A stretch of 64,000 nt of DNA from the NCBI GenBank assembly GCA_020027215.1, contig JAHRAO010000038.1, positions 30,179-94,178 on the forward strand, given 5' to 3'. Within the stretch, counting starts at the first letter, position 1, and each line of letters opens with the position of its first letter. The position numbers were made by a program, and so were the translations under genes. The notes under the pieces were generated by a model. That model saw only the letters and a list, made by a program, of their open reading frames with translations. It was not told the DNA's origin and ran no database searches. Positions 21,354-62,136 of the stretch are shown piece after piece. The stretch is from Gammaproteobacteria bacterium (GTDB lineage Bacteria; Pseudomonadota; Gammaproteobacteria; JABABF01; JAHRAO01).

Positions 21354-21656
21354 ATGAGTAAAGAAAATAATTTGAATAAAAAAAGCTTGGCTGTTGCCTT
21401 AGGCTCAGTATTCCTTGCTTCTTCCATTGTTCCGTTAGCGAGCGCAGAAAGTACTAATCCTTTCCAAGCAGAGTCACTACAGCATGGTTATGAAGAAGTG
21501 AATTATGGCAGCAAAGCGCCCAAAGGTGAAGAAGGGAAATGTGGTGAAGGCAAATGCGGCGACAAGAAGAAAGGCGAAGGGAAATGTGGTGAAGGCAAAT
21601 GTGGTGACAAGAAGAAAGGCGAAGGGAAGTGCGGCGAGGGCAAATGCGGCCACTAA
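21354..21656 (+). CDS. Secreted RiPP precursor of the Hvf/bufferin type, with tandem EGKCG repeats
   Basis: Sec signal peptide MSKENNLNKKSLAVALGSVFLASSIVPLASA. The core is KGEEGKCGEGKCGDKKK GEGKCGEGKCGDKKK GEGKCGEGKCGH: six Cys, each in an EGKCG motif. It lies immediately upstream of a DUF692 gene. Confidence 0.8.
   Translation: MSKENNLNKKSLAVALGSVFLASSIVPLASAESTNPFQAESLQHGYEEVNYGSKAPKGEEGKCGEGKCGDKKKGEGKCGEGKCGDKKKGEGKCGEGKCGH
21525..21653 (+). repeat. 2.8 tandem copies of a 45-bp unit encoding GEGKCGEGKCGDKKK
   Basis: Copy A 21525-21572 (48 bp, one extra GAA codon). Copy B 21573-21617. Partial copy C 21618-21653. Nucleotide identity between copies is over 90%. Confidence 0.9.
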
Positions 21657-22507
21657 AAGAAGCTGCTACAGTTGTTTCCGGATCTGGGTTAGGCTTAAGA
21701 CGTGATTTCATCACTGACATATTGACCCAGCTTCCGGAGCAAGTGGATTTCATGGAAGTTGCTCCTGAAAACTGGATAGGGATCGGGGGACAGCATGGAA
21801 AACAATTCAGTGCTCTTGCCGAGCATTATCCGATTACGCTACATGGCTTATCGCTCAACATTGGAGGACCAGATCCTTTAGATACAAAACTGATTGATAA
21901 TATTCGCCAATTTATTGATCGCTATCAATGTCCTTTTTACTCCGAACATCTCACTGCCTGTGGGGATCATGGGCACTTGTATGATTTAATGCCGTTGCCT
22001 TTTACCGAAGAGGCGGTGCACTATGTTGCCGAACGAGTGAAAGAAGTACAGGATAGGTTAGGGATGCGTATAGCCTTGGAAAACGCTTCGTACTATACAG
22101 CGTTACAACAAGATTTAAGTGAAAGTGATTTTATCTGTGCAGTATTAAAAGAAGCGGATTGCGATCTGTTGCTGGATATCAACAATATATATGTCAATAG
22201 CGTCAATCATTCGTATGATCCAATTCAATTCTTACGCCGCCTACCCGTGGAACGGGCTATTTATTTCCATATTGCGGGACATTACCGCGAGGCAGAGGAT
22301 TTGCGTATCGATACGCATGGGGCAGATGTGTTAGCAAGAGTGTGGTTTTTGTTGGAAGAAGCCTACCGTCTATTTGGTAGTCAACCGACCTTACTAGAAC
22401 GAGATTTTAATATTCCCCCCTTAGAAACGCTGTTGCTGGAAGTTGAGAGAGTGCGGGCTTTACAGTCCTGTTATTCAGATGACTACAGCTTGCAAGCCGC
22501 GTTATAA
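21629..22507 (+). CDS. DUF692 (UPF0276) multinuclear non-heme iron oxidase (MNIO), MbnB/HvfB/BufB family
   Basis: GLGLRRDFITDIL...DFMEVAPENW...YPITLHGLSLNIGGPDPLD...YSEHL is the canonical DUF692 TIM-barrel pattern. Start is uncertain: the ATG at 21629 overlaps the precursor by 28 nt. Confidence 0.8.
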   Translation: MRRGQMRPLKEAATVVSGSGLGLRRDFITDILTQLPEQVDFMEVAPENWIGIGGQHGKQFSALAEHYPITLHGLSLNIGGPDPLDTKLIDNIRQFIDRYQCPFYSEHLTACGDHGHLYDLMPLPFTEEAVHYVAERVKEVQDRLGMRIALENASYYTALQQDLSESDFICAVLKEADCDLLLDINNIYVNSVNHSYDPIQFLRRLPVERAIYFHIAGHYREAEDLRIDTHGADVLARVWFLLEEAYRLFGSQPTLLERDFNIPPLETLLLEVERVRALQSCYSDDYSLQAAL

Positions 22508-23246
22508 TTTTCAGAAAATACAAGCGCATTTTTCAGCATATTTGCGTGATCCAGAAAACACGCCACCCCCTCCACGTATTCAAGCGCGGCGCTTAAAAAT
22601 TTACAATGATTTATTTTTCAATAATATGTCCAACTTTTTATCTAACGGGTTCCCTGTATTGCGTAAGTTATATCACGACAATGATTGGAACGCGTTGGTG
22701 CGCAATTTTATGCGCGTACACCGTTGCGCGACACCTTATTTTGCCCAAATAGGTCAAGAATTTGTTGCTTACCTACAACACACACATGCCTCCACTCCAG
22801 CTGACCCTCCTTTCCTTATTGAATTGGCTCACTATGAATGGATTGAAACGGCGTTACAATGTGCTGAAGAAGATATACACGGCATAAGCGTTAACCGGGA
22901 TGGCCATTTGTTACAAGAGCGTCCAGTGCTTTCGCCTTTGGTTGTTTCGCTCGTTTATCAGTATCCTGTGCACCAAATTAGCCCCTCATGCCGTCCAGAA
23001 CACCCGTCAGCAACTCCACACTATTTACTTGTTTATCGTGATCGCGCCGATACGGTGCAATTTATGGAAATTAATGATGTGACTGCAGGTTTAATTAGTA
23101 GATTGCAAGAAAATACTCATTTCACCGGAGCAAGAGTACTCCAAGATCTCGCCCACCAGATGAACCAAGATGATGTTTGTCAACATGGAGCGAATATGTT
23201 GTCTTTATTGCGGGAAAAAGATATTCTTTTGGGAACAGCACCATAA
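22479..23246 (+). CDS. DUF2063 partner protein of the MNIO (HvfC/BufC-like)
   Basis: The N-terminus FQKIQAHFSAYLRDPENTPPP matches the conserved DUF2063 start. It overlaps the 3' end of the MNIO gene. The ORF-table start at 22443 is probably too far upstream. Confidence 0.7.
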   Translation: MTTACKPRYNFQKIQAHFSAYLRDPENTPPPPRIQARRLKIYNDLFFNNMSNFLSNGFPVLRKLYHDNDWNALVRNFMRVHRCATPYFAQIGQEFVAYLQHTHASTPADPPFLIELAHYEWIETALQCAEEDIHGISVNRDGHLLQERPVLSPLVVSLVYQYPVHQISPSCRPEHPSATPHYLLVYRDRADTVQFMEINDVTAGLISRLQENTHFTGARVLQDLAHQMNQDDVCQHGANMLSLLREKDILLGTAP

Positions 23247-25578: not shown

Positions 25579-25803
25579 ATGATGGCAAGTGATATGATGT
25601 GGCAAGGAGTGGTTTTAATGATTGCCGGTATGGTCACGGTGTTTTCTTTTTTAATTATATTAATACTGTGTTTACACGCTATGTCGGCTATACTGTCGCG
25701 TTTTCCAGATCCCTTATCCACGGGCGCGCAGCTCCCTCAACCCGATCCACGAAAAATTATTGCTGCCGCCACGGCAGTGCATATGGTGCGTCACCGTAAA
25801 TGA
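25579..25803 (+). CDS. oadG: Oxaloacetate decarboxylase gamma subunit
   Basis: 74-aa single-TM protein. It directly precedes oadA, with an ATGA overlap. Confidence 0.6.
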   Translation: MMASDMMWQGVVLMIAGMVTVFSFLIILILCLHAMSAILSRFPDPLSTGAQLPQPDPRKIIAAATAVHMVRHRK

Positions 25804-27578
25804 ACTCTATGCAAAAAAATCCTTTACAAATTACTGAAGTTGTTTTACGCGATGGACACCAATCCTTGCTCGCCACTCGCTTGCGTTTAGACGATATGTT
25901 ACCCATTGCCGAAAAGTTAGATCAAGTGGGATTTTGGTCTTTGGAAACTTGGGGCGGCGCAGTTTTTGATGCGTGTATCCGCTACTTAGGTGAAGATCCA
26001 TGGGAACGTCTGCGCGAACTCAGAAAGGTCTTGCGCCATACACCGCAGCAGATGCTCCTGCGCGGGCAAAATCTTCTCGGTTATCGCCATTATGCCGATG
26101 ATGTGGTCGATAAATTCGTTGAAAGGGCAATAGAAAATGGAGTCAGCATATTCCGCATTTTTGACGCCATGAATGATCCGCGCAATTTAGAGCGATCAAT
26201 TAGTGCGGTATTAAAACAAGGCCAGCACGCACAAGGAACGATCGCTTATACGACGAGTTCGGTGCATACTATAGAGAGCTGGATGGAGTTGGCACATCGC
26301 ATCAGCGATTTAGGCGTGCATTCATTAGCCATTAAAGATATGGCGGGCTTATTGGGCCCATACCAAGCTTATGAGTTAGTGAGTCGACTCAAAAAAGAGC
26401 TGACTATTCCGATCCACATGCAATGTCATGCAACCACTGGCTTTTCCACTCCAGCTATCTTGAAGGCGGTTGAAGCGGGCATTGATAATGTGGATACCTC
26501 TATTTCTTCTATGAGCATGACTTACGGTCATTCGGCTACTGAAACAGTGGTCGCTATGTTTGCCGACATGCCTTGCGACACGGGCTTGTCTTTGCCTCTG
26601 TTAGAAGAGATTGCTTTATATTTTCGCGATGTGCGTGAAAAATATGCCCAATTTGAAGGTAAATTACGTGCGGTAGATGTGCGCATACTCACTGCACAGG
26701 TTCCCGGCGGTATGCTAACCAATATGGAAAACCAACTGCGCGAGCAAAATGCCACAGACCGTTTTGATGAAGTGCTCACTGAAATTCCAGCAGTGCGTAA
26801 AGATTTGGGATTTATCCCTCTAGTGACCCCGACTTCACAAATTGTAGGCACCCAAGCGGTAATGAATGTATTATCCGGCGAACGATATAAAATGATTTCA
26901 AAGGAAGTTGCCGCTATTCTTAAGGGAGAATACGGGGCAACACCCGCCGCGATGGATGAAAAATTACAAAAACGTGTATTGGAGGATGCCGCTGCAATTA
27001 CGTGCCGTCCTGCAGATCTTTTGCCGGATGAATGGCAAAAGCTATACGATGAATTGCATCGCACCAGTGTTGAAAAAAATATTCAACTCGCCCACTGTGC
27101 GGATGAAGATGTGCTCATCTATGCTTTATTTCCCCAAATAGGGCTCAATTTTTTGGCGCATCGCGGGGATGCCAGTGCATTTGAATCACCTCCCGGTACA
27201 CCGCAAGAGATAAAAGATAGGGCGCCGAATCAATCTGCACCCTCCACGAGTGAATCCTATCAAGTCCTCTTGGATGGTCAACAGTATCAGGTAATGGTTC
27301 TTCCCGATACCCAGCCCGCTCCACCATCAGACCAGCAGGCACCATCCGCTGCTGGCGCGCAGCAACAAAATGTCATGAGTGCTCCTTTAGCCGGCAATGT
27401 CTTTAATGTGCTTGTCCAGCCAGGGGATCGCATTACACAAGGACAAGTATTATTCATTTTAGAAGCAATGAAGATGGAAACTGAAATACGTGCCGAGGGG
27501 GATGGCGTCGTTCAATCTATTGCGGTGAAGACAGGTGATAAGGTCAATGTGGGCGATACTTTAATTCACTGGGCTTAA
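25800..27578 (+). CDS. oadA: Oxaloacetate decarboxylase alpha subunit (carboxyltransferase plus biotin carrier)
   Basis: N-terminal pyruvate-carboxylase-like carboxyltransferase domain. C-terminal biotinyl domain with EAMKMETEI. 592 aa. Confidence 0.8.
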
Positions 27579-27583
27579 ACCCT

Positions 27584-28750
27584 ATGGATATACTGTATCA
27601 GCTATGGCTACAGAGCGGACTGAGTCAACTGGAATGGGGGCATGGAGCCATGATCGGCATAGGATGCCTATTGTTATACTTGGCGATTGTGCATCGTTTT
27701 GAACCTCTCTTGCTTGTCCCGATTGGTTTTGGCGCACTCTTAATTAACATCCCGAGTAGCGGTTTTGACACCCCGCCTCTCTACGATCTTGCCGGATCCT
27801 TGCAATCGCCGGGAGGATTGATGTATTACATCTATAATGTCGGTATTGTCACTGGGGTCTTTCCGTTAATTATTTTTATGGGAGTGGGTGCTTTAACTGA
27901 CTTTGGCCCCCTCTTAGCTCACCCTAAAACATTGCTGTTAGGTGCTGCGGCACAATTTGGTATTTTTATTACCGTTCTCGGTTCGCTCGCCCTCAATTAT
28001 TTTGGCATTATTGAATTTACTTTACGTGAAGCGGCGGCAATCGGGATCATCGGTGGCGCCGACGGTCCCACCGCTATTTTTGTGGCGAGCAAGTTAGCCC
28101 CTGACTTGTTAGCGCCTATCGCCATAGCCGCTTATTCGTATATGGCAATGGTGCCTATTATTCAGCCACCGATTATGCGCGCTTTGACGACTGCAAAGGA
28201 GCGCCAAATTAAGATGGTGCAATTAAGGGAAGTGTCTCGCCGCGAGAAGATTATATTTCCATTATTACTACTGGGGTTAGTTGCCTTACTTTTACCGAGC
28301 GCAACTCCTTTATTGGGCATGTTCTGTTTAGGTAATTTAATCCGTGAATGCGGTGTCGTGGAACGGCTCAATCAGACGGTGCAAAATGCACTGATTAATA
28401 CGACGACTATATTTTTGGGTATAGGTATCGGTTCAAGAATGCATGCCGATTTATTTTTGAATGCCAAAACCTTGGGCATATTATTGTTAGGTGCCGTTGC
28501 TTTTTCTATCGGTACGGCAACTGGGGTCTTGATGGCAAAATTGATGAATTACTTCTCACGCCAACCCATCAACCCGTTAATTGGTTCGGCAGGCGTATCC
28601 GCTGTGCCGATGGCTGCACGGGTCTCTAATAAAATTGGATTAGAATCAAACCCCAATAACTTTTTATTGATGCATGCTATGGGACCTAATGTTGCCGGAG
28701 TATTAGGGTCGGCAATTGCTGCAGGAATAATGTTAAGTATGCTTAGCTAA
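27584..28750 (+). CDS. oadB: Oxaloacetate decarboxylase beta subunit (Na+-translocating)
   Basis: 388-aa polytopic membrane protein of the OadB/GcdB family, directly downstream of oadA. Confidence 0.75.
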
Positions 28751-42659: not shown

Positions 42660-43802
42660 ATGCATGCGCCGGCGCCAGGCGATCTACCGCAGGCGCGGTG
42701 CGTGCCGACAATATGTGTTGCGCTAAAAAATATCATTGATGAAGCGACTCACAGCATAGATTTTGCTATGTATGGCATGCATCGGCAACCACAATTATTG
42801 AGTGCATTGCTTGGCGCACAAAGACGCGGTGTGCGAGTGCGCGGTATCGTTGATCGGCAGTTGAACGGCAAATATTATTATCGCGACACCCCTATGTGGA
42901 AGAGAGCTCTCCACAATGTCCGTGATGATTATCAAACGGATCAGCGGCAAGATAAAAGGTTCAAGACAAAACCCCGTTGGCAACGCCCGCCATTCAAATT
43001 TAATGGTAATTTAATGCATAATAAATTTTTTGTCGTGGATCGGCGATGGGTATGGACCGGCTCAGCGAATGTGAGCCCAACAGGCGTGGGTGGCTATAAC
43101 ACGAATATCGTTGCCCTCATTGATGCTCCCCCTCTTGCCCAGCAATATACCAATGAATTCGAACAGATGTATATCGCTGACCGCTACCATGGTGAAAAAC
43201 GCCAACTTCCCAATCCGCCTGTGTGGACGGATCATGGCACGATAAAAGTGTATTTTTCCCCACAAACGCGACCGGCGCAATCTGCAGTGATACCCATACT
43301 CCGCAATGCACAGGAGGGAATTGACATTATGATGTTTTTTTTGACGCATAAGAAGATTGCTCGTGTTTTAGCGCACAAACAGCGTGCGAAAGTTCCAGTG
43401 CGCGTGATTTTAGATGCGGTCGGTGCGGCAAATTCCTATAGCCAACATCATTATCTTCGTCAACAGGGCGTGAAAGTAAAAGTGGAAAATTGGGGTGGAA
43501 AAATGCATGCAAAAAGTGCGATCATTGATGGGGACACCCTTATTGTGGGCTCTATGAATTGGAGTCGCTCGGGAAGTGATTACAACGATGAAAATACATT
43601 GGTTATTCATCGTGCCCCAACTTTAGCTCGGCAAGCACGGCATTTTTTTAATCGCTTGTGGAAATCCATCCCCCAAGGCTCAGAAGATATTTCTGCCGAA
43701 GCCTTTGCGTCGGGTACGGCTTGTTCTGATAATATAGATAATGATTTTGATCGTCAAATAGACGACGATGATGAAGACTGTGCCGCACCAATTTTTGAAT
43801 GA
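42660..43802 (+). CDS. Phospholipase D superfamily protein with two HKD motifs
   Basis: HNKFFVVD....GSAN and HAKSAIIDG....GSMNWS are the two HxKx4D motifs. Acidic C-terminal tail DNDFDRQIDDDDEDCAAPIFE. No signal peptide if the ATG at 42660 is the start. Confidence 0.7.
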   Translation: MHAPAPGDLPQARCVPTICVALKNIIDEATHSIDFAMYGMHRQPQLLSALLGAQRRGVRVRGIVDRQLNGKYYYRDTPMWKRALHNVRDDYQTDQRQDKRFKTKPRWQRPPFKFNGNLMHNKFFVVDRRWVWTGSANVSPTGVGGYNTNIVALIDAPPLAQQYTNEFEQMYIADRYHGEKRQLPNPPVWTDHGTIKVYFSPQTRPAQSAVIPILRNAQEGIDIMMFFLTHKKIARVLAHKQRAKVPVRVILDAVGAANSYSQHHYLRQQGVKVKVENWGGKMHAKSAIIDGDTLIVGSMNWSRSGSDYNDENTLVIHRAPTLARQARHFFNRLWKSIPQGSEDISAEAFASGTACSDNIDNDFDRQIDDDDEDCAAPIFE

Positions 43803-43847: not shown

Positions 43848-44888
43848 TTGCGAATTGTGCATAGAGTGATTTCACCTTCTTTTGCTGAAGTTCCCATTGT
43901 CATTACTCCATCAATTGCCGGCACTATCGGTTTAGAAGAATCTGTATTGCTCTCATTTCTGACTCACTGGGGACACTATCACCCCGATCAGCGTTGGACT
44001 ATTGAACAGACGGAATTGACGCACTACCTTCCTTTTTGGGACCTGTTAGATTTGCAACGCATTATTCGCAGTGCCGAAAGCAAAGGTGTCCTTGCGGTTT
44101 ATTCGCCACCACTGAGCGAAAGTAAGCGACTTGAGTTTTCTTTACAACCACAAGTGACCGTTCCTGACGTCAAGAAATCTCCAACGCGTACGCCGGGAAA
44201 AACAACTATTGCAGAAAATTGGCGTCCCAGTGAGCGCGCCGTGGAATACTTAACAGCAATGTATAGGATTCCCTCTCAGTTCATTGTGGACAACATATCG
44301 CCATTCGTTATTTATTGGCGCGATAGAGCGGACAAAAGAGATGCATGGGATAGCGTCTTTATCGAACGTATTATTACGTGCTGGGAAGCACAAAACACAA
44401 ATGCATTACCGAAGAAACCCCGACCCATGACGCGTACATGGTTACCCGATAAAGATACGCTGAGTACTTTGCACGCGCGAAATATTCCAAAAGAATTTAT
44501 TGAAGATGCGATCAATGAATTCAGAATCTATTGGGTGGAAAGAGGCGAGGCGCATCAAACATGGAATGCAAAGTTCATTTACCATGTCGGCAGACAGTGG
44601 AATTATTATTCTGGTCTTGATAAACATAAACCCCATCCATTACCCACAAATTGGCAACCGAACGAAGATGTATATCGGGTATTACAGTTGGCTTACATAG
44701 AAAAACAATTTGCGGTGCAGTGCCTACCACAATTTAAGTTATATTGGAGCGAAAATAAAAGTGCTAAAATGTCGTGGAGTACAATTTTTTTACAATATGT
44801 AAAGAGTGAGTGGATGCGGACGAAAAATGCCACCGCAAGAGACAAAAAAACATCCTTTGAAGAACTCAGTGACCGCCATTGGGGATAA
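43848..44888 (+). CDS. DnaT-like protein with three tandem DnaT C-terminal (ssDNA-binding) repeats
   Basis: Three repeats of about 60 aa, roughly aa 129-190, 205-262 and 272-330. Each carries W-x-P...F..YW......W..F, as in E. coli DnaT residues 90-150 (YPDWQPDADF...[21 protein letters not shown]). Assignment rests on motif recall, not a search. Confidence 0.5.
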   Translation: MRIVHRVISPSFAEVPIVITPSIAGTIGLEESVLLSFLTHWGHYHPDQRWTIEQTELTHYLPFWDLLDLQRIIRSAESKGVLAVYSPPLSESKRLEFSLQPQVTVPDVKKSPTRTPGKTTIAENWRPSERAVEYLTAMYRIPSQFIVDNISPFVIYWRDRADKRDAWDSVFIERIITCWEAQNTNALPKKPRPMTRTWLPDKDTLSTLHARNIPKEFIEDAINEFRIYWVERGEAHQTWNAKFIYHVGRQWNYYSGLDKHKPHPLPTNWQPNEDVYRVLQLAYIEKQFAVQCLPQFKLYWSENKSAKMSWSTIFLQYVKSEWMRTKNATARDKKTSFEELSDRHWG

Positions 44889-45315
44889 ACAACCCAGTTT
44901 TGATCAGGCAGGCGATGATATTACGGCGATCAATGAACTTTTTATGGCGTTTAAGGTGGGCTACCCCATGCAGTATCACAAATGCTTTCCCGATGATGCA
45001 ACTCTCACACTGGCAAAACAATTTTGGCGGCAGTCGTTAAGCGAGTTTGCCCCACAACACATTCACACCGCTATTATAGATATGGGGCATAAATGCGAAT
45101 ATCTACCGACTATCCACCAATTCTATCAATTGTGTTGTGCCCAACGTGCATCTGTAGTCAGTGATTTACGTTGCGCCGATCCTGCGTTCGCCCTTGAAGA
45201 AGTGCGCTTACCGCTTGCCGAACAACAAGCACAATTGCGTAAACTCAAAGACACGCTTGCCGCGCACAAAAAATCCCACGCTATCCCTCGGGAAAAAGTG
45301 CGTGCTGAAAAGTAA
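44827..45315 (+). CDS. Lambda replication protein P-like (putative helicase-loader-like protein)
   Basis: FKVGYPMQYHKCFPDDATLTLAKQFWRQ...LPTIHQFYQLCCAQRAS resembles lambda P (FP....R.QW..AF....LPSPGQFVAWCRE). It overlaps the 3' end of the DnaT-like gene, echoing the dnaT-dnaC pairing. Confidence 0.4.
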   Translation: MPPQETKKHPLKNSVTAIGDKQPSFDQAGDDITAINELFMAFKVGYPMQYHKCFPDDATLTLAKQFWRQSLSEFAPQHIHTAIIDMGHKCEYLPTIHQFYQLCCAQRASVVSDLRCADPAFALEEVRLPLAEQQAQLRKLKDTLAAHKKSHAIPREKVRAEK

Positions 45316-58708: not shown

Positions 58709-59740
58709 ATGGCGGATGAACTGGATGAATTGATATCACAGGCAATTGATGCAATTCAATCTGCGCCGGATGTGCGCCGCTTACACGATATTAAAGTCTA
58801 CTACCTTGGCAAGAAAGGTCAATTCACTTTACGCTTAAAAACGCTTGCCAAGCGCACTGCAGATGAACAACGCGTCTATGGTAAAAAATTGAATGCGGTG
58901 AAAGCCGATTTAGCACGCCATATTCATCAGAGAAAAGAACAATTAGATGCTCTTTTAGTGCAACAACGCATAGCCGATGAAACAATTGATGTGACTTTAC
59001 CGGTCATGGATGACCCGCTTGCTTATGGTGGGTCACACCCAGTGATACACCTATTGGGTGAAATGGAATCATTATTTGCGAGCATAGGTTTCGACAGTAT
59101 CTTTTCTCCAGAAATTGAAAGCGATTATTACAATTTTGCTGCTCTCAATATGCCGCCGCATCACCCCGCCCGCGCAATGCACGATAGTTTTTATTTGGAT
59201 CCGACAACTGTTTTACGCACCCATACCTCACCCGCACAAGTGCGCGCTATGGAAACTCAGCCTTTGCCTTTACGCATTTTATCCACGGGAAGGGTATATC
59301 GGCGCGATTCTGATTTGACCCATACGCCAATGTTTCATCAAGTAGAGGGGTTGTGGATCGATCAACAGATTGCTTTTTGCGATTTGAAGGGGTTATTGAC
59401 AGAATTTGTGCACATTTTATTAAAAGACCGCCAACTTAAAACACGTTTTCGTCCATCGTATTTCCCTTTTACCGAACCGTCCGCAGAGATGGATATCGCG
59501 TGCCCGCAGTGCGCTCAAAAAAAATGCCGTTTGTGCGGTTATAGTGGCTGGATAGAGGTCTTGGGGTGTGGTATGGTTAATCCGAATGTTTTACAGATAT
59601 CTGGGATTGACAGTCATACCTACACTGGCTTTGCATTTGGTTTGGGGGTAGAGCGGTTGGCGATGCTCCGTTATGGAGTGAGTGATTTACGCCAGTTTTT
59701 TGACAATGACTTGCGCTTTCTTGCGCAGTGCCGATCATGA
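58709..59740 (+). CDS. pheS: Phenylalanine--tRNA ligase alpha subunit
   Basis: Class II motifs (FRPSYFPFTEPS, GFAFGLGVERLAM). 343 aa. Confidence 0.9.
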   Translation: MADELDELISQAIDAIQSAPDVRRLHDIKVYYLGKKGQFTLRLKTLAKRTADEQRVYGKKLNAVKADLARHIHQRKEQLDALLVQQRIADETIDVTLPVMDDPLAYGGSHPVIHLLGEMESLFASIGFDSIFSPEIESDYYNFAALNMPPHHPARAMHDSFYLDPTTVLRTHTSPAQVRAMETQPLPLRILSTGRVYRRDSDLTHTPMFHQVEGLWIDQQIAFCDLKGLLTEFVHILLKDRQLKTRFRPSYFPFTEPSAEMDIACPQCAQKKCRLCGYSGWIEVLGCGMVNPNVLQISGIDSHTYTGFAFGLGVERLAMLRYGVSDLRQFFDNDLRFLAQCRS

Positions 59741-62136
59741 AAATAAGCCATAACTGGTTGGCTGAGTGGGTGCCCCTCCCATCGGATGTGGAACAAATTG
59801 CCGAACGTTTTACCATGGCGGGTATTGAAATTGATGCGATACAATGCTGGGGCGATGAAATACACGGAGTGCATATTGCCCAAATTACTGCCGTGACTCC
59901 TCACCCTAATGCCGATAAATTGCATTTATGTGCTGTTGACGATGGCAGCGATCAGATTAAAAATGTAGTGTGCGGGGCAGCGAATGCTGTTGTCGGTGCT
60001 AAGGTGGCGTATGCTAAAGTGGATAGTGTTTTGCCGGGGGGGATACCTATTACTCGGCGCAAAATTCGTGGGCAATATTCTGACGGCATGCTTTGTTCAT
60101 CGGCAGAACTCAATGTGAGTGGGAGTGATGATGGCATTGTAATTTTAGATCAATCTGCCCCCATTGGCGAATCCCTCAAAAAGTATTTGCAATTAAATGA
60201 TCGCATACTAGATGTGAGCATAACACCTAATCGTGGCGATTGTTTAAGTGTTTTGGGAATGGCACGTGAATGGAGCGCATTGAATGGCGAGACACTCTCC
60301 ATCCCGCCCATAAAAGAAACTGCATCCACTATTGAAGATACTCTTCCGATTAAAATCTGTGCATCCCATGATTGTCCATGTTATTTAGGACGAGTGATTA
60401 AAGGCGTGAATATGGAGGCACTGCTCCCCATCGCGATGCGCGAGAAATTACATCGTTTAGGTGCACGCTCGGTTAATCCGGTGGTCGATATTACGAACTA
60501 TGTGTTATACGAACTTGGTCAGCCTTTGCACGCATTCGATCTCTCCCACATTGATGGTGGGATAGTCGTCCGTGACGCCCAACTGGGGGAATCATTGCGC
60601 TTGTTGGATGGTAGTCAGTTGCAGTGTGATGGTAGTGAGCTCTTAATTGCCGATGACCACAAGCCGCTTGCTTATGCCGGTGTGATGGGAGGAGCAGAAA
60701 GTGCGGTCTCTGCTCAGACGACCGATATTTTTCTTGAATCGGCATTTTTTCTCCCGCCGCGCATCGCACATCGCCAAGGGCGTATGGTTTTGAACAGTGA
60801 AGCGGCGTATCGTTATGAACGCGGGGTGGATTATCGTTTGCCCCAGCGCGCAATGGAACGGGCAACCCAACTGATTATAGACTGTTTGGGCGGACATGCA
60901 GGCCCGATCGCTTATGCCGTGGATAAAGAAAATCTACCCACTGTAGCCGATATACAATTCCCCCCCCACGACATACAACGTTTATTGGGTTTTACTATCC
61001 CAGTGAAACAAGCGCGTCAATTTTTAGTTCATTTAGGCATGGAAGTTAAAGACACAGATACAAATAATACGTGGTCTATACAGGTGCCGAGTCATCGTTT
61101 TGATGTGCGCAATAGCGCCGATATCGTAGAAGAAATTGTGCGTTTATATGGTTACCAAAATGTTCCAACCCGGTTGCCCAAGGCTGCCGTTCGTTATACC
61201 GCCCATAAACAGGAGCGCTGGGATGATACCGCGCGCCAGTATTTTATTGCTCAGGGTTACCAAGAAGTAGTCACCTACAGCTTTGTTTGCCCTCAATTGC
61301 TTCACCAGCTGAATCCGCACCATCCCCCCCCCATGCTCCTTAACCCTTTATCGGATGATACGGCGGCAATGCGCACGACCTTATGGGCTGGGCTGTTGCA
61401 GGTTCTATGCCACAATTTTAGACGTCAAGTGCAGCGTATGTCAATATTTGAAATTGGGCAGTGTTTTCGCCAAGAACAAGATGGACAATTGTTATTTGAT
61501 GAGCGCATTGGACTCGCTCTCGCTGGATTGCATTCTCCAGAGAGTTGGATGACCGATAAAAAACCAGCTGATTTTTATGCTATAAAAGCAGTTGTTTTTA
61601 GTTGGTTGAATACCGTGTATAGTTTTGCACCATGTCGCGCAGTGGCGATGGAGCATCCTGCGCTACATCCTGGTCAATCGGCGCGTTTGGAGAAAGACGA
61701 TAAACCGATTGGGTGGATCGGTACTTTACATCCCCAAATAGCGGACGCCTTATCGCTCAAAATCCCAGTAATATTGGCTGAAATTGATCGTCCATCGCCA
61801 ACACAATCCAGCGGCTGGCAGAGTAATTCAATTGCTATTTCTAAATATCCAGAAATTCGTCGCGATATTACGGTCAGCGATAAATCTCATGTGCCTGCAA
61901 CAAAAATACAGTACTTACTGCGCACAGCGGCTGGTCCATATTTAACCCAAATTAATTTAGTCATGATTTACGAAGAAAAAAATGTACGCCACTTAACCTT
62001 CGGCTTGATTTTCCAGCATCCGTCACGTACTTTATCGGATGTTGAAATAAACGATACGATATTCGGTATAATAAAGGAATTGAAAGGGGGGCAACAATTG
62101 GATATTAGAGAAAGTGGGCGACATGAGTCGAAATGA
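59728..62136 (+). CDS. pheT: Phenylalanine--tRNA ligase beta subunit
   Basis: 802 aa with an N-terminal tRNA-binding domain and B3/4, B5 and FDX-ACB domains. Overlaps the pheS stop. Confidence 0.9.
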   Translation: MPIMKISHNWLAEWVPLPSDVEQIAERFTMAGIEIDAIQCWGDEIHGVHIAQITAVTPHPNADKLHLCAVDDGSDQIKNVVCGAANAVVGAKVAYAKVDSVLPGGIPITRRKIRGQYSDGMLCSSAELNVSGSDDGIVILDQSAPIGESLKKYLQLNDRILDVSITPNRGDCLSVLGMAREWSALNGETLSIPPIKETASTIEDTLPIKICASHDCPCYLGRVIKGVNMEALLPIAMREKLHRLGARSVNPVVDITNYVLYELGQPLHAFDLSHIDGGIVVRDAQLGESLRLLDGSQLQCDGSELLIADDHKPLAYAGVMGGAESAVSAQTTDIFLESAFFLPPRIAHRQGRMVLNSEAAYRYERGVDYRLPQRAMERATQLIIDCLGGHAGPIAYAVDKENLPTVADIQFPPHDIQRLLGFTIPVKQARQFLVHLGMEVKDTDTNNTWSIQVPSHRFDVRNSADIVEEIVRLYGYQNVPTRLPKAAVRYTAHKQERWDDTARQYFIAQGYQEVVTYSFVCPQLLHQLNPHHPPPMLLNPLSDDTAAMRTTLWAGLLQVLCHNFRRQVQRMSIFEIGQCFRQEQDGQLLFDERIGLALAGLHSPESWMTDKKPADFYAIKAVVFSWLNTVYSFAPCRAVAMEHPALHPGQSARLEKDDKPIGWIGTLHPQIADALSLKIPVILAEIDRPSPTQSSGWQSNSIAISKYPEIRRDITVSDKSHVPATKIQYLLRTAAGPYLTQINLVMIYEEKNVRHLTFGLIFQHPSRTLSDVEINDTIFGIIKELKGGQQLDIRESGRHESK

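Follow-up and report, generated by a model that had tools for sequence, protein, structure and literature searches.

Placing the ring-shaped replicative helicase on DNA is an essential problem, to which DopC-DopE is a proposed answer of a third kind, next to DciA and DnaC/DnaI. Brezellec et al. (2017, PMC5509034) put it forward, for Cellvibrionales and some Oceanospirillales, as a third type of loader for the replicative helicase. In their account, dopE, which resembles the gene for lambda P, occurs in Cellvibrionales and in those Oceanospirillales that have neither dciA nor dnaC/dnaI. The gene before it is always dopC, whose product joins an O-like helix-turn-helix N-terminus to a domain of the DnaT C-terminal type (PMC5509034). 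The gene contexts are resident and non-prophage, without iterons and away from the GC-skew minimum, and the authors also raise a possible role in replication restart and suggest an anti-phage benefit of a domesticated loader (PMC5509034). Later work only 'suggested' DopE as a loader (PMC11087808) or listed it among helicase loaders with a citation of the 2017 proposal (PMC12661323). The 64,000-nucleotide stretch analysed here (the window; contig JAHRAO010000038.1 of the gammaproteobacterial assembly GCA_020027215.1) carries two overlapping genes, ORF1 and ORF2. They are probably a chromosomally fixed, vertically inherited dopC-dopE pair that derives from lambdoid-phage replication genes and belongs to the proposed helicase loader of bacteria without DciA and DnaC.

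Both open reading frames (ORFs) that a preliminary description of this DNA placed in the locus are present:

43848..44888, + strand: ORF1, dopC-like gene, 346 amino acids (aa), TTG start with a GTG alternative at 43857, three Pfam DnaT domains
44827..45315, + strand: ORF2, short dopE-like gene, 162 aa from the ATG at 44827
44827..44888, + strand: dual-coding overlap of ORF1 and ORF2, 62 nucleotides (nt), ORF2 in the +1 frame, from direct reading of the sequence

The downstream gene overlaps ORF1 as first described, but the size of 163 aa given for it does not hold. It encodes 162 aa from the ATG at 44827, which the public assembly gene calls use, or 169 aa from a GTG at 44806 (44806-45315, + strand), which would lengthen the overlap with ORF1 to 83 nt. 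At its 3' end, ORF2 overlaps a convergent DUF4426 gene by 35 nt.

Sequence, gene order and overlap frame all place the window pair in the dopC-dopE family. A word-indexed homologue search with ORF1 returned 155 full-length relatives at 32-39% identity, including proteins from Oceanicoccus sagamiensis, a Spongiibacteraceae metagenome-assembled genome (MAG) and a Pseudomonadales MAG. ORF1 is a full-length homologue (35-40% identity, 91-98% coverage) of a Cellvibrionales family of 340-480 aa, and a pattern scan of GTDB species genomes confirmed at least 552 loci of this family. The pair is therefore no orphan, as it had been called, nor is it confined to one strain or to a prophage, given the housekeeping context described below. 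Comparisons of synteny and flanking genes use the best 80 of these loci, which do not include the window genome. By title, nearly all 80 are Cellvibrionales (Porticoccaceae, Cellvibrionaceae, Spongiibacteraceae, Halieaceae, Simiduia, Marinimicrobium, Teredinibacter and Cellvibrio), and 74 of them have an ORF2 homologue as the gene immediately downstream of the ORF1 homologue. Within the family, ORF1 sits on a long, deep branch, with a mean identity of 36% to the sampled members, compared with 50% among those members.

The overlap between the two genes is conserved as well. The same +1-frame dopC/dopE arrangement is found in 75 of the 76 loci examined, a set that includes the Logan assembly of the window locus itself (L001). 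Among genome loci, the commonest overlap is 89 nt when the first in-frame ATG of dopE is counted as its start. In family loci, the DopC tail L[ST]DRSWA and the N-terminal DopE motif S-x-T-x-A-G are read from the same bases, and the window versions of these dual-coded motifs are ELSDRHWG followed by the stop (ORF1) and SVTAIG (ORF2). The +1-frame overlap is thus a further shared derived character of the window pair and the dopC-dopE family. The conserved dual coding is a family-wide feature that is absent from the description in the 2017 paper, and the overlapping reading frames may couple the translation of the two proteins.

Domain searches and structural models assign the following parts to ORF1, with confidence given as the predicted local distance difference test (pLDDT) of AlphaFold2:

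43887..44147, + strand: N-terminal winged-helix-like domain, aa 14-100, pLDDT 87-95 over aa 31-100
44208..44393, + strand: DnaT repeat 1, aa 121-182, PF17948, repeat-to-repeat z = 15.5-16.3
44427..44612, + strand: DnaT repeat 2, aa 194-255, best Pfam stretch aa 193-254
44640..44825, + strand: DnaT repeat 3, aa 265-326, PF17948
44862..44885, + strand: C-terminal tail 'ELSDRHWG', family consensus L[ST]DRSWA, with D342 and W345 invariant and L340 and S344 nearly so

The Pfam family PF17948, 'DnaT DNA-binding domain', matches ORF1 strongly in three stretches (E=1.3e-54). This bears out the three tandem copies of about 60 aa that had been noticed by eye, each with the W-x-P, F..YW and W..F spacing, and their likeness to the C-terminal domain of Escherichia coli DnaT. 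The repeats are about 30% identical to one another, with z-scores of 15.5-19 against 300 shuffles, none of which reaches the observed score. In repeat 3, W269, P271, W300, W310 and W322 are invariant across the DopC family alignment. The family profile aligns repeat 1 to residues 84-153 of E. coli DnaT (4ou6/4ou7, E=0.004-0.005), repeat 2 compared with the E. coli DnaT C-terminal fragment gives z=5.2, and all three repeats have a Y-W pair that corresponds to Y127/W128 of DnaT. No DNA-level similarity between the repeats was found, so the triplication is, on this sequence evidence, old, and a recent triplication at the DNA level is rejected.

The AlphaFold2 model of ORF1 has a mean pLDDT of 81 and a predicted template modelling score (pTM) of 0.36, so the mutual arrangement of its domains is unreliable. 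Its parts are a winged-helix-like N-domain (aa ~20-100), a disordered linker, three helical bundles and a disordered tail, the last at low confidence (pLDDT 38-46 over aa 331-346). In Foldseek comparisons, the bundles match the DnaT84-153 complex with single-stranded DNA (ssDNA; 4ou6_C) at a probability of 1.00, repeat 2 included, and Salmonella DnaT (6aeq_B) at 0.96. The N-domain matches HxlR/MarR winged-helix regulators over ~80 columns with probabilities of 0.99-1.0. Signals from phages accompany these matches. The 'DnaD-like helicase loader' family phrog_6493 matches ORF1 with E=0.0019, and tblastn aligns ORF1 with Stenotrophomonas and Xanthomonas phage initiators at 24-25% identity over 91% of the query. 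Over the N-domain only, tblastn finds a 'replication initiation O-like' protein of Pseudomonas phage AF and a Staphylococcus phage 'DnaD-like helicase loader' at 32-34% identity. ORF1 therefore has the composition published for the gene upstream of dopE, an initiator-like N-terminal helix-turn-helix followed by DnaT C-terminal-type domains.

The number of DnaT domains also places ORF1 within its family. DopC proteins share an N-domain with the pattern PSLAxTIGLEEAVLL...LPFWD...LQRI...KGI, three or four DnaT repeats and the C-terminal L[ST]DRSWA; Pfam finds three DnaT domains in the Oceanicoccus protein and four in family member P0028. Three or four repeats are thus the DopC norm, which the 2017 description does not include. 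The triplication had been regarded as unusual in itself; it is so only in comparison with E. coli DnaT and the phage initiators, which have one such domain each, as in the Stenotrophomonas phage relative of ORF1.

For ORF2, the link to lambda P emerges through its family. A word-indexed search with ORF2 found only itself, and a direct PDB sequence search with either ORF alone gave nothing meaningful; NCBIfam likewise yielded no useful match for ORF1 or ORF2. On its own, ORF2 matches the Phage_lambda_P family PF06992 weakly (E=8e-4, 19.6 bits, under the 26-bit cut-off) and only over model positions 2-78, and it matches the 'P-like helicase loader' family phrog_109 with E=3.6e-4. An exhaustive phmmer search of 1.84 billion representatives recovered 88 relatives at E<=1e-3, the best foreign one with E=4e-17 and 31% identity. 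A profile built from the top 40 relatives matches lambda P (8v9t_V) over residues 17-227 with E=8.6e-6, and hhalign compares the ORF2 family with lambda P at 91.8% probability (E=7.5e-7). Full-length DopE proteins of Cellvibrio and Simiduia pass PF06992 over the whole model with 39.7 and 32.9 bits. The lambda-P resemblance first noted for ORF2 is therefore solid through the family but weak for ORF2 alone, and it does not extend to a complete P protein. As judged by these profiles, homology to lambda P is established for domain II and the C-terminal helix. Profile searches detect homology for both members of the pair, to DnaT for ORF1 itself and to P through the ORF2 family.

The domain structure of lambda P provides the frame for this comparison. 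Domain I is an N-terminal lasso (residues 1-29), domain II (~30-119) forms the interface between P subunits and stabilises the pentamer, domain III (~120-192) binds the interfaces of the DnaB C-terminal domains and stabilises the open spiral, and domain IV (193-233) is a C-terminal lasso helix that binds the DH-LH elements of DnaB and is probably the first to engage (PMC12661323). Two of these parts have counterparts in ORF2:

44905..45156, + strand: helical domain equivalent to domain II, aa 27-110, pLDDT 96-98
45214..45276, + strand: C-terminal amphipathic helix, candidate DnaB-binding 'lasso', aa 130-150, pLDDT ~90

The helix 'PLAEQQAQLRKLKDTL' of ORF2 aligns with the DopE consensus 'PLSxEExxxxLxxLRxxL' and with 'PLNRAQALAKIAEIKAKF' of lambda P, and it fits the family pattern P-L-x-x-x-[EQ]-x-x-x-L-x-x-L-[RK]. 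From this alignment, we infer that it is the equivalent of domain IV. The alignment and the AlphaFold2 model thus recover domain II and the lasso helix in ORF2. They show no domain III: about 70 residues that are present in lambda P and in the DopE of all 74 genome loci are missing, and the model has a short, low-confidence linker where this domain would sit. DopE in those 74 loci measures 198-254 aa, with one outlier of 334 aa and a median of ~221 aa, compared with 162 aa for ORF2.

Compared with the described DopC-DopE of Cellvibrionales and Oceanospirillales, the window pair shares co-orientation, a resident context, the initiator-like N-domain with DnaT domains, a P-like protein encoded downstream, the lack of iterons, full-length alignment of ORF1 and the identical overlap frame. 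It differs in its short DopE without domain III, in a distinct gene neighbourhood and in a host that does not fall clearly within the described orders. The reading of the pair thus arrives again at a published system, whose function, loading or restart, we infer. The DopCE system itself is already published, and what is new here is the divergent host, the DopE without domain III, the DnaT repeat number and the dual-coding overlap.

The surroundings of the pair bear on whether it might instead be the replication module of a still-active cryptic prophage or mobile element, with ORF1 binding an origin in the manner of lambda O. The resemblance of the ORF1 N-domain to phage replication initiators would fit such a role, as would three DnaA-box-like sites in the locus. 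The neighbourhood argues otherwise. Upstream lie waaA, aroQ, accB, accC and a two-domain PLD gene, and downstream lie DUF4426, metW, metX, rsmD, a LysM/SLT transglycosylase gene and msrA. Family scans thus bear out the reported accBC, PLD and metXW neighbours. No integrase, repressor or phage-structural family was found among the ~40 window ORFs scanned, and the nearest transfer RNA gene is 5.6 kb away, past housekeeping genes, in line with the earlier statement that such genes and a flanking transfer RNA are lacking. GC content is uniform across the locus at 0.41-0.45, and the cumulative GC skew climbs steadily over 38-51 kb with no turning point at the locus. ORF1 contains no iterons; the repeats found in it are short and at chance level. 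In tblastn, ORF2 matches none of 50,697 phage records, and the phage relatives of ORF1 have one DnaT domain rather than three. An active element is therefore highly improbable and largely refuted, and the context agrees with the resident, non-prophage setting, free of iterons and of a GC-skew minimum, described for dopC-dopE. The evidence instead supports a phage-derived pair of a DnaT-domain protein and a P-type loader fixed in the chromosome, as first suggested, and matches the published DopC/DopE hypothesis.

The 1.5-kb locus holds three 8-of-9 matches to the DnaA box TTATCCACA, at 44285-44293 (- strand), 44640-44648 (+ strand) and 44880-44888 (- strand), one of which arises from the stop region of ORF1. 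The window average leads to an estimate of about 0.7 matches for the locus, and the window as a whole has 30 such matches against 19.7 expected from shuffles. The count is only marginally over expectation, and the excess in the locus is probably due to chance. A replication origin in ORF1 is rejected on this marginal excess together with the lack of iterons and of a skew turning point.

Comparison with related phage and bacterial systems sets the pair apart from each of them. Like lambda O-P, it places an initiator-like protein before the loader, and the DopE family is homologous to lambda P domains II-IV, of which ORF2 retains counterparts to domain II and the C-terminal lasso helix. In contrast to lambda, the place of the C-terminal half of O is taken in ORF1 by three DnaT domains, ORF2 has no domain III, the four ori iterons inside lambda O have no counterpart, and the genes overlap by 62 nt instead of the 4 nt of O and P. 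No similarity of ORF1 to lambda O is detectable, including no PF04492 (Phage_rep_O) match. The label 'O-like' is therefore rejected for ORF1 at the sequence level on a null hhalign result; only the general winged-helix fold is shared, along with the likeness to other phage initiators.

E. coli DnaT shares with ORF1 the PF17948 three-helix bundle with its conserved Y-W pair and a gene position just upstream of a helicase-loader gene. However, DnaT has one such domain together with an oligomerising N-terminal domain that binds PriB, whereas ORF1 has three and a winged helix; the partner of dnaT is the AAA+ protein DnaC, and that of ORF1 is of the P type. PDB matches of the DopC family profile cover only the C-terminal domain of DnaT, and ORF1 is not an orthologue of DnaT.

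The loader of phage SPP1, G39P, is the best structural match of ORF2 and resembles its model in combining a small helical domain with a C-terminal helix or tail. In G39P, this tail is the part that binds its helicase. The two proteins are only 18-19% identical, the Foldseek match (E=0.87) is not significant and the profile match (E=0.049) is weak, and G39P is a Firmicute phage protein whose partner helicase is a different one. A further parallel comes from VdhL1/VdhL2 of Vibrionaceae (PMC11087808), where a phage-derived loader replaces dciA, a neighbouring gene is weakly lambda-O-like and the similarity to PF06992 is remote. These belong to another protein family and another taxon, and no DnaT-repeat partner is described for them.

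Structural work on DnaT suggests how ORF1 might act. The C-terminal domains of DnaT form a helical filament on ssDNA, with two nucleotides per domain-domain interface (PMC4132743). In the mature E. coli preprimosome, four such domains are present, and filament formation takes the lagging strand from PriB (PMC13377028, 2026). By analogy, a single chain with three or four DnaT domains in tandem would amount to a covalently linked form of this filament, and a scaffold role for DopC is more plausible because the E. coli domains form a filament on ssDNA. The fixed three or four repeats fit the 2026 finding and suggest a testable role for DopC.

In the proposed mechanism, ORF2 (DopE) would act as the loader, binding DnaB through its C-terminal helix, while its domain II would oligomerise above the DnaB ring and open it or keep it open. 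ORF1 (DopC) would serve as a recruiting scaffold, its three linked DnaT bundles wrapping ssDNA at an unwound origin or a stalled fork and its winged-helix N-domain or conserved C-terminal tail holding DopE-DnaB. The loader in this genome would be a minimal form of G39P-like build, with a small helical domain and a helicase-binding tail. Only tentatively can it be suggested that such a minimal P-type loader, made of domain II and the lasso helix without domain III, loads the helicase together with a three-DnaT polypeptide that offers a ready-made ssDNA filament. If the genome has no loader besides this pair, the DnaB ring would open without need of domain III, and DopC would serve at the origin as an ssDNA scaffold in the manner of DnaA or DnaT. 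For annotation, the pair is better labelled dopC/dopE than hypothetical or prophage remnant.

The same DnaT evidence can be read as pointing to restart instead of origin loading, with DopC as a DnaT-like adaptor at abandoned forks, DopE reloading DnaB there and another loader, such as DciA, serving oriC. A DnaT domain has just one well-characterised role, that in the PriA-PriB-DnaT preprimosome, in which filaments of C-terminal domains take over the ssDNA of the lagging strand, and the 2017 authors raise the same option (PMC5509034). Neither dciA nor dnaC/dnaI was found among the scanned ORFs of the 64-kb window, and dciA may lie elsewhere in the genome, beyond it. Against restart, in the described clades the pair occurs exactly where dciA and dnaC/dnaI are absent, which indicates a general loader (PMC5509034). 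ORF1 also lacks the PriB-binding N-terminal domain of DnaT and instead has a winged helix like those of phage initiators. On balance, a restart module appears unlikely.

Several points weigh against the loader reading as a whole. The 2017 paper argues chiefly from the lack of dciA and dnaC/dnaI, which is covered here by the scanned ORFs of the 64-kb window only, and no experimental test of any DopC or DopE was found in the literature, including papers from 2024-2025. On the DopC side, hhalign gives a probability of 0.2% for the family compared with lambda O. The Y-W pair is the sole set of E. coli DnaT ssDNA-contact residues kept in all three repeats; an equivalent of K143 occurs in repeat 2 only, and the positions of K133 and F135 differ in the family consensus. 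On the DopE side, ORF2 is missing the domain that stabilises the open DnaB spiral in lambda P, and its region equivalent to domain I is poorly conserved and modelled at low confidence. Because ORF2 lacks domain III and, searched alone, falls short of the PF06992 threshold, loader activity is less certain for it than for full-length DopE.

These features of ORF2 also invite the view that it is a decayed or repurposed DopE, now a helicase-binding regulator, an inhibitor, a decoy against phage loaders or a functionless protein in a fast-evolving genome. The missing domain III, the poorly conserved domain I region and the subthreshold Pfam score would agree with decay, as would the high divergence of the whole genome, whose PheT reaches no more than 43% identity to any known protein. 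G39P carries the description 'helicase loader/inhibitor', and the anti-phage benefit proposed for a domesticated loader in PMC5509034 would fit repurposing. Yet the ORF is intact, domain II is modelled with very high confidence, the C-terminal helix keeps the family pattern and the overlap with dopC is preserved. Independent short forms on many contigs of another lineage also pass the Pfam threshold, which suggests a viable architecture. Decay or repurposing is, on this evidence, distinctly improbable. A frameshifted full-length dopE is rejected too, since the missing segment is internal, the ORF is intact and no space is left downstream, where ORF2 ends inside the convergent DUF4426 gene; the loss of domain III is thus not a frameshift artefact.

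Returning to ORF2 as a minimal DopE, four further proteins seem to lack domain III (P0133, P0139, P0146 and P0156), some of which may be fragments at contig ends. P0133 (139 aa) scores above the Pfam threshold. It occurs on 23 contigs of ~35% GC from marine metagenomes, where its neighbours are acrB, xseB, ispA and dxs and a DnaT-repeat gene lies just upstream. Copies of it are found at:

L084:43-462: P0133 copy
L085:1-420: P0133 copy
L086:303-722: P0133 copy

On L086, the upstream DnaT-repeat gene appears frameshifted at a run of A, and several P0133 contigs end exactly at the P0133 gene. The recurrence of short DopE forms argues for a workable architecture, and their presence in a 35%-GC marine lineage suggests that the minimal system arose more than once or is old. 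ORF2 can thus be regarded as a natural deletion experiment, which points to domain II and the C-terminal helix as what a P-type loader cannot do without; at 162 aa, it is also a small protein fit for biochemistry.

The divergence of the host is one new element of the finding, as far as its sequences indicate. Among 5.8 billion database proteins, none is more than 43% identical to PheT (pheT, 59728-62136); the best matches of PheT are to Oceanospirillales/Pseudomonadales genera such as Cobetia, Bacterioplanes, Nitrincola and Thalassolituus, at only 43% identity. Most window proteins form clusters of one or two sequences, and the window ORF sequence is seen in only one NCBI contig and one Sequence Read Archive (SRA) assembly. 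The host probably represents a deep gammaproteobacterial lineage that evolves fast or is poorly sampled and lies near Oceanospirillales/Pseudomonadales, the neighbourhood expected of a dopC-dopE host.

Around the pair, the metX-metW-DUF4426 genes occur within 6 kb of dopC in only one of the 80 best loci, L016:1-6001 from Alteromonadaceae bacterium Bs31, an arrangement that may reflect an earlier linkage of these genes to dopCE. The PLD gene that adjoins ORF1 upstream (42660-43802) encodes 380 aa with two PLD domains (PLDc_2, E=2.5e-52). Its product has partial matches to the NucT nuclease and DISARM DrmC models, and its C-terminus weakly matches an acidic double-disulfide repeat model (E=2.4e-4, under the model's cut-off). 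None of the 80 related dopCE loci has this gene in its flanks; it therefore probably has nothing to do with the pair, and a functional link between the two is rejected.

Elsewhere, the window carries acnA, a type II secretion operon, purA, gltX, oxaloacetate decarboxylase genes, degP, dnaX-recR, rnd, thrS-infC-pheST and polysaccharide genes. A gene at 21354-21656, whose 100-aa product combines a signal peptide with repeated EGKCGEGKCG motifs, is followed by genes for an MbnB/TglH/ChrH (DUF692) enzyme (21629-22507) and a DUF2063/NGO1945 protein (22443-23246). This layout (21354-23246) is one that we take to resemble the clusters of bufferin-type, Cys-rich metallophores among the ribosomally synthesised and post-translationally modified peptides (RiPPs). 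At 25800-28750, genes for the alpha subunit (PYC_OADA/HMGL-like with a biotinyl domain) and then the beta subunit (OAD_beta) of a Na+-translocating oxaloacetate decarboxylase suggest a sodium-based energy metabolism.

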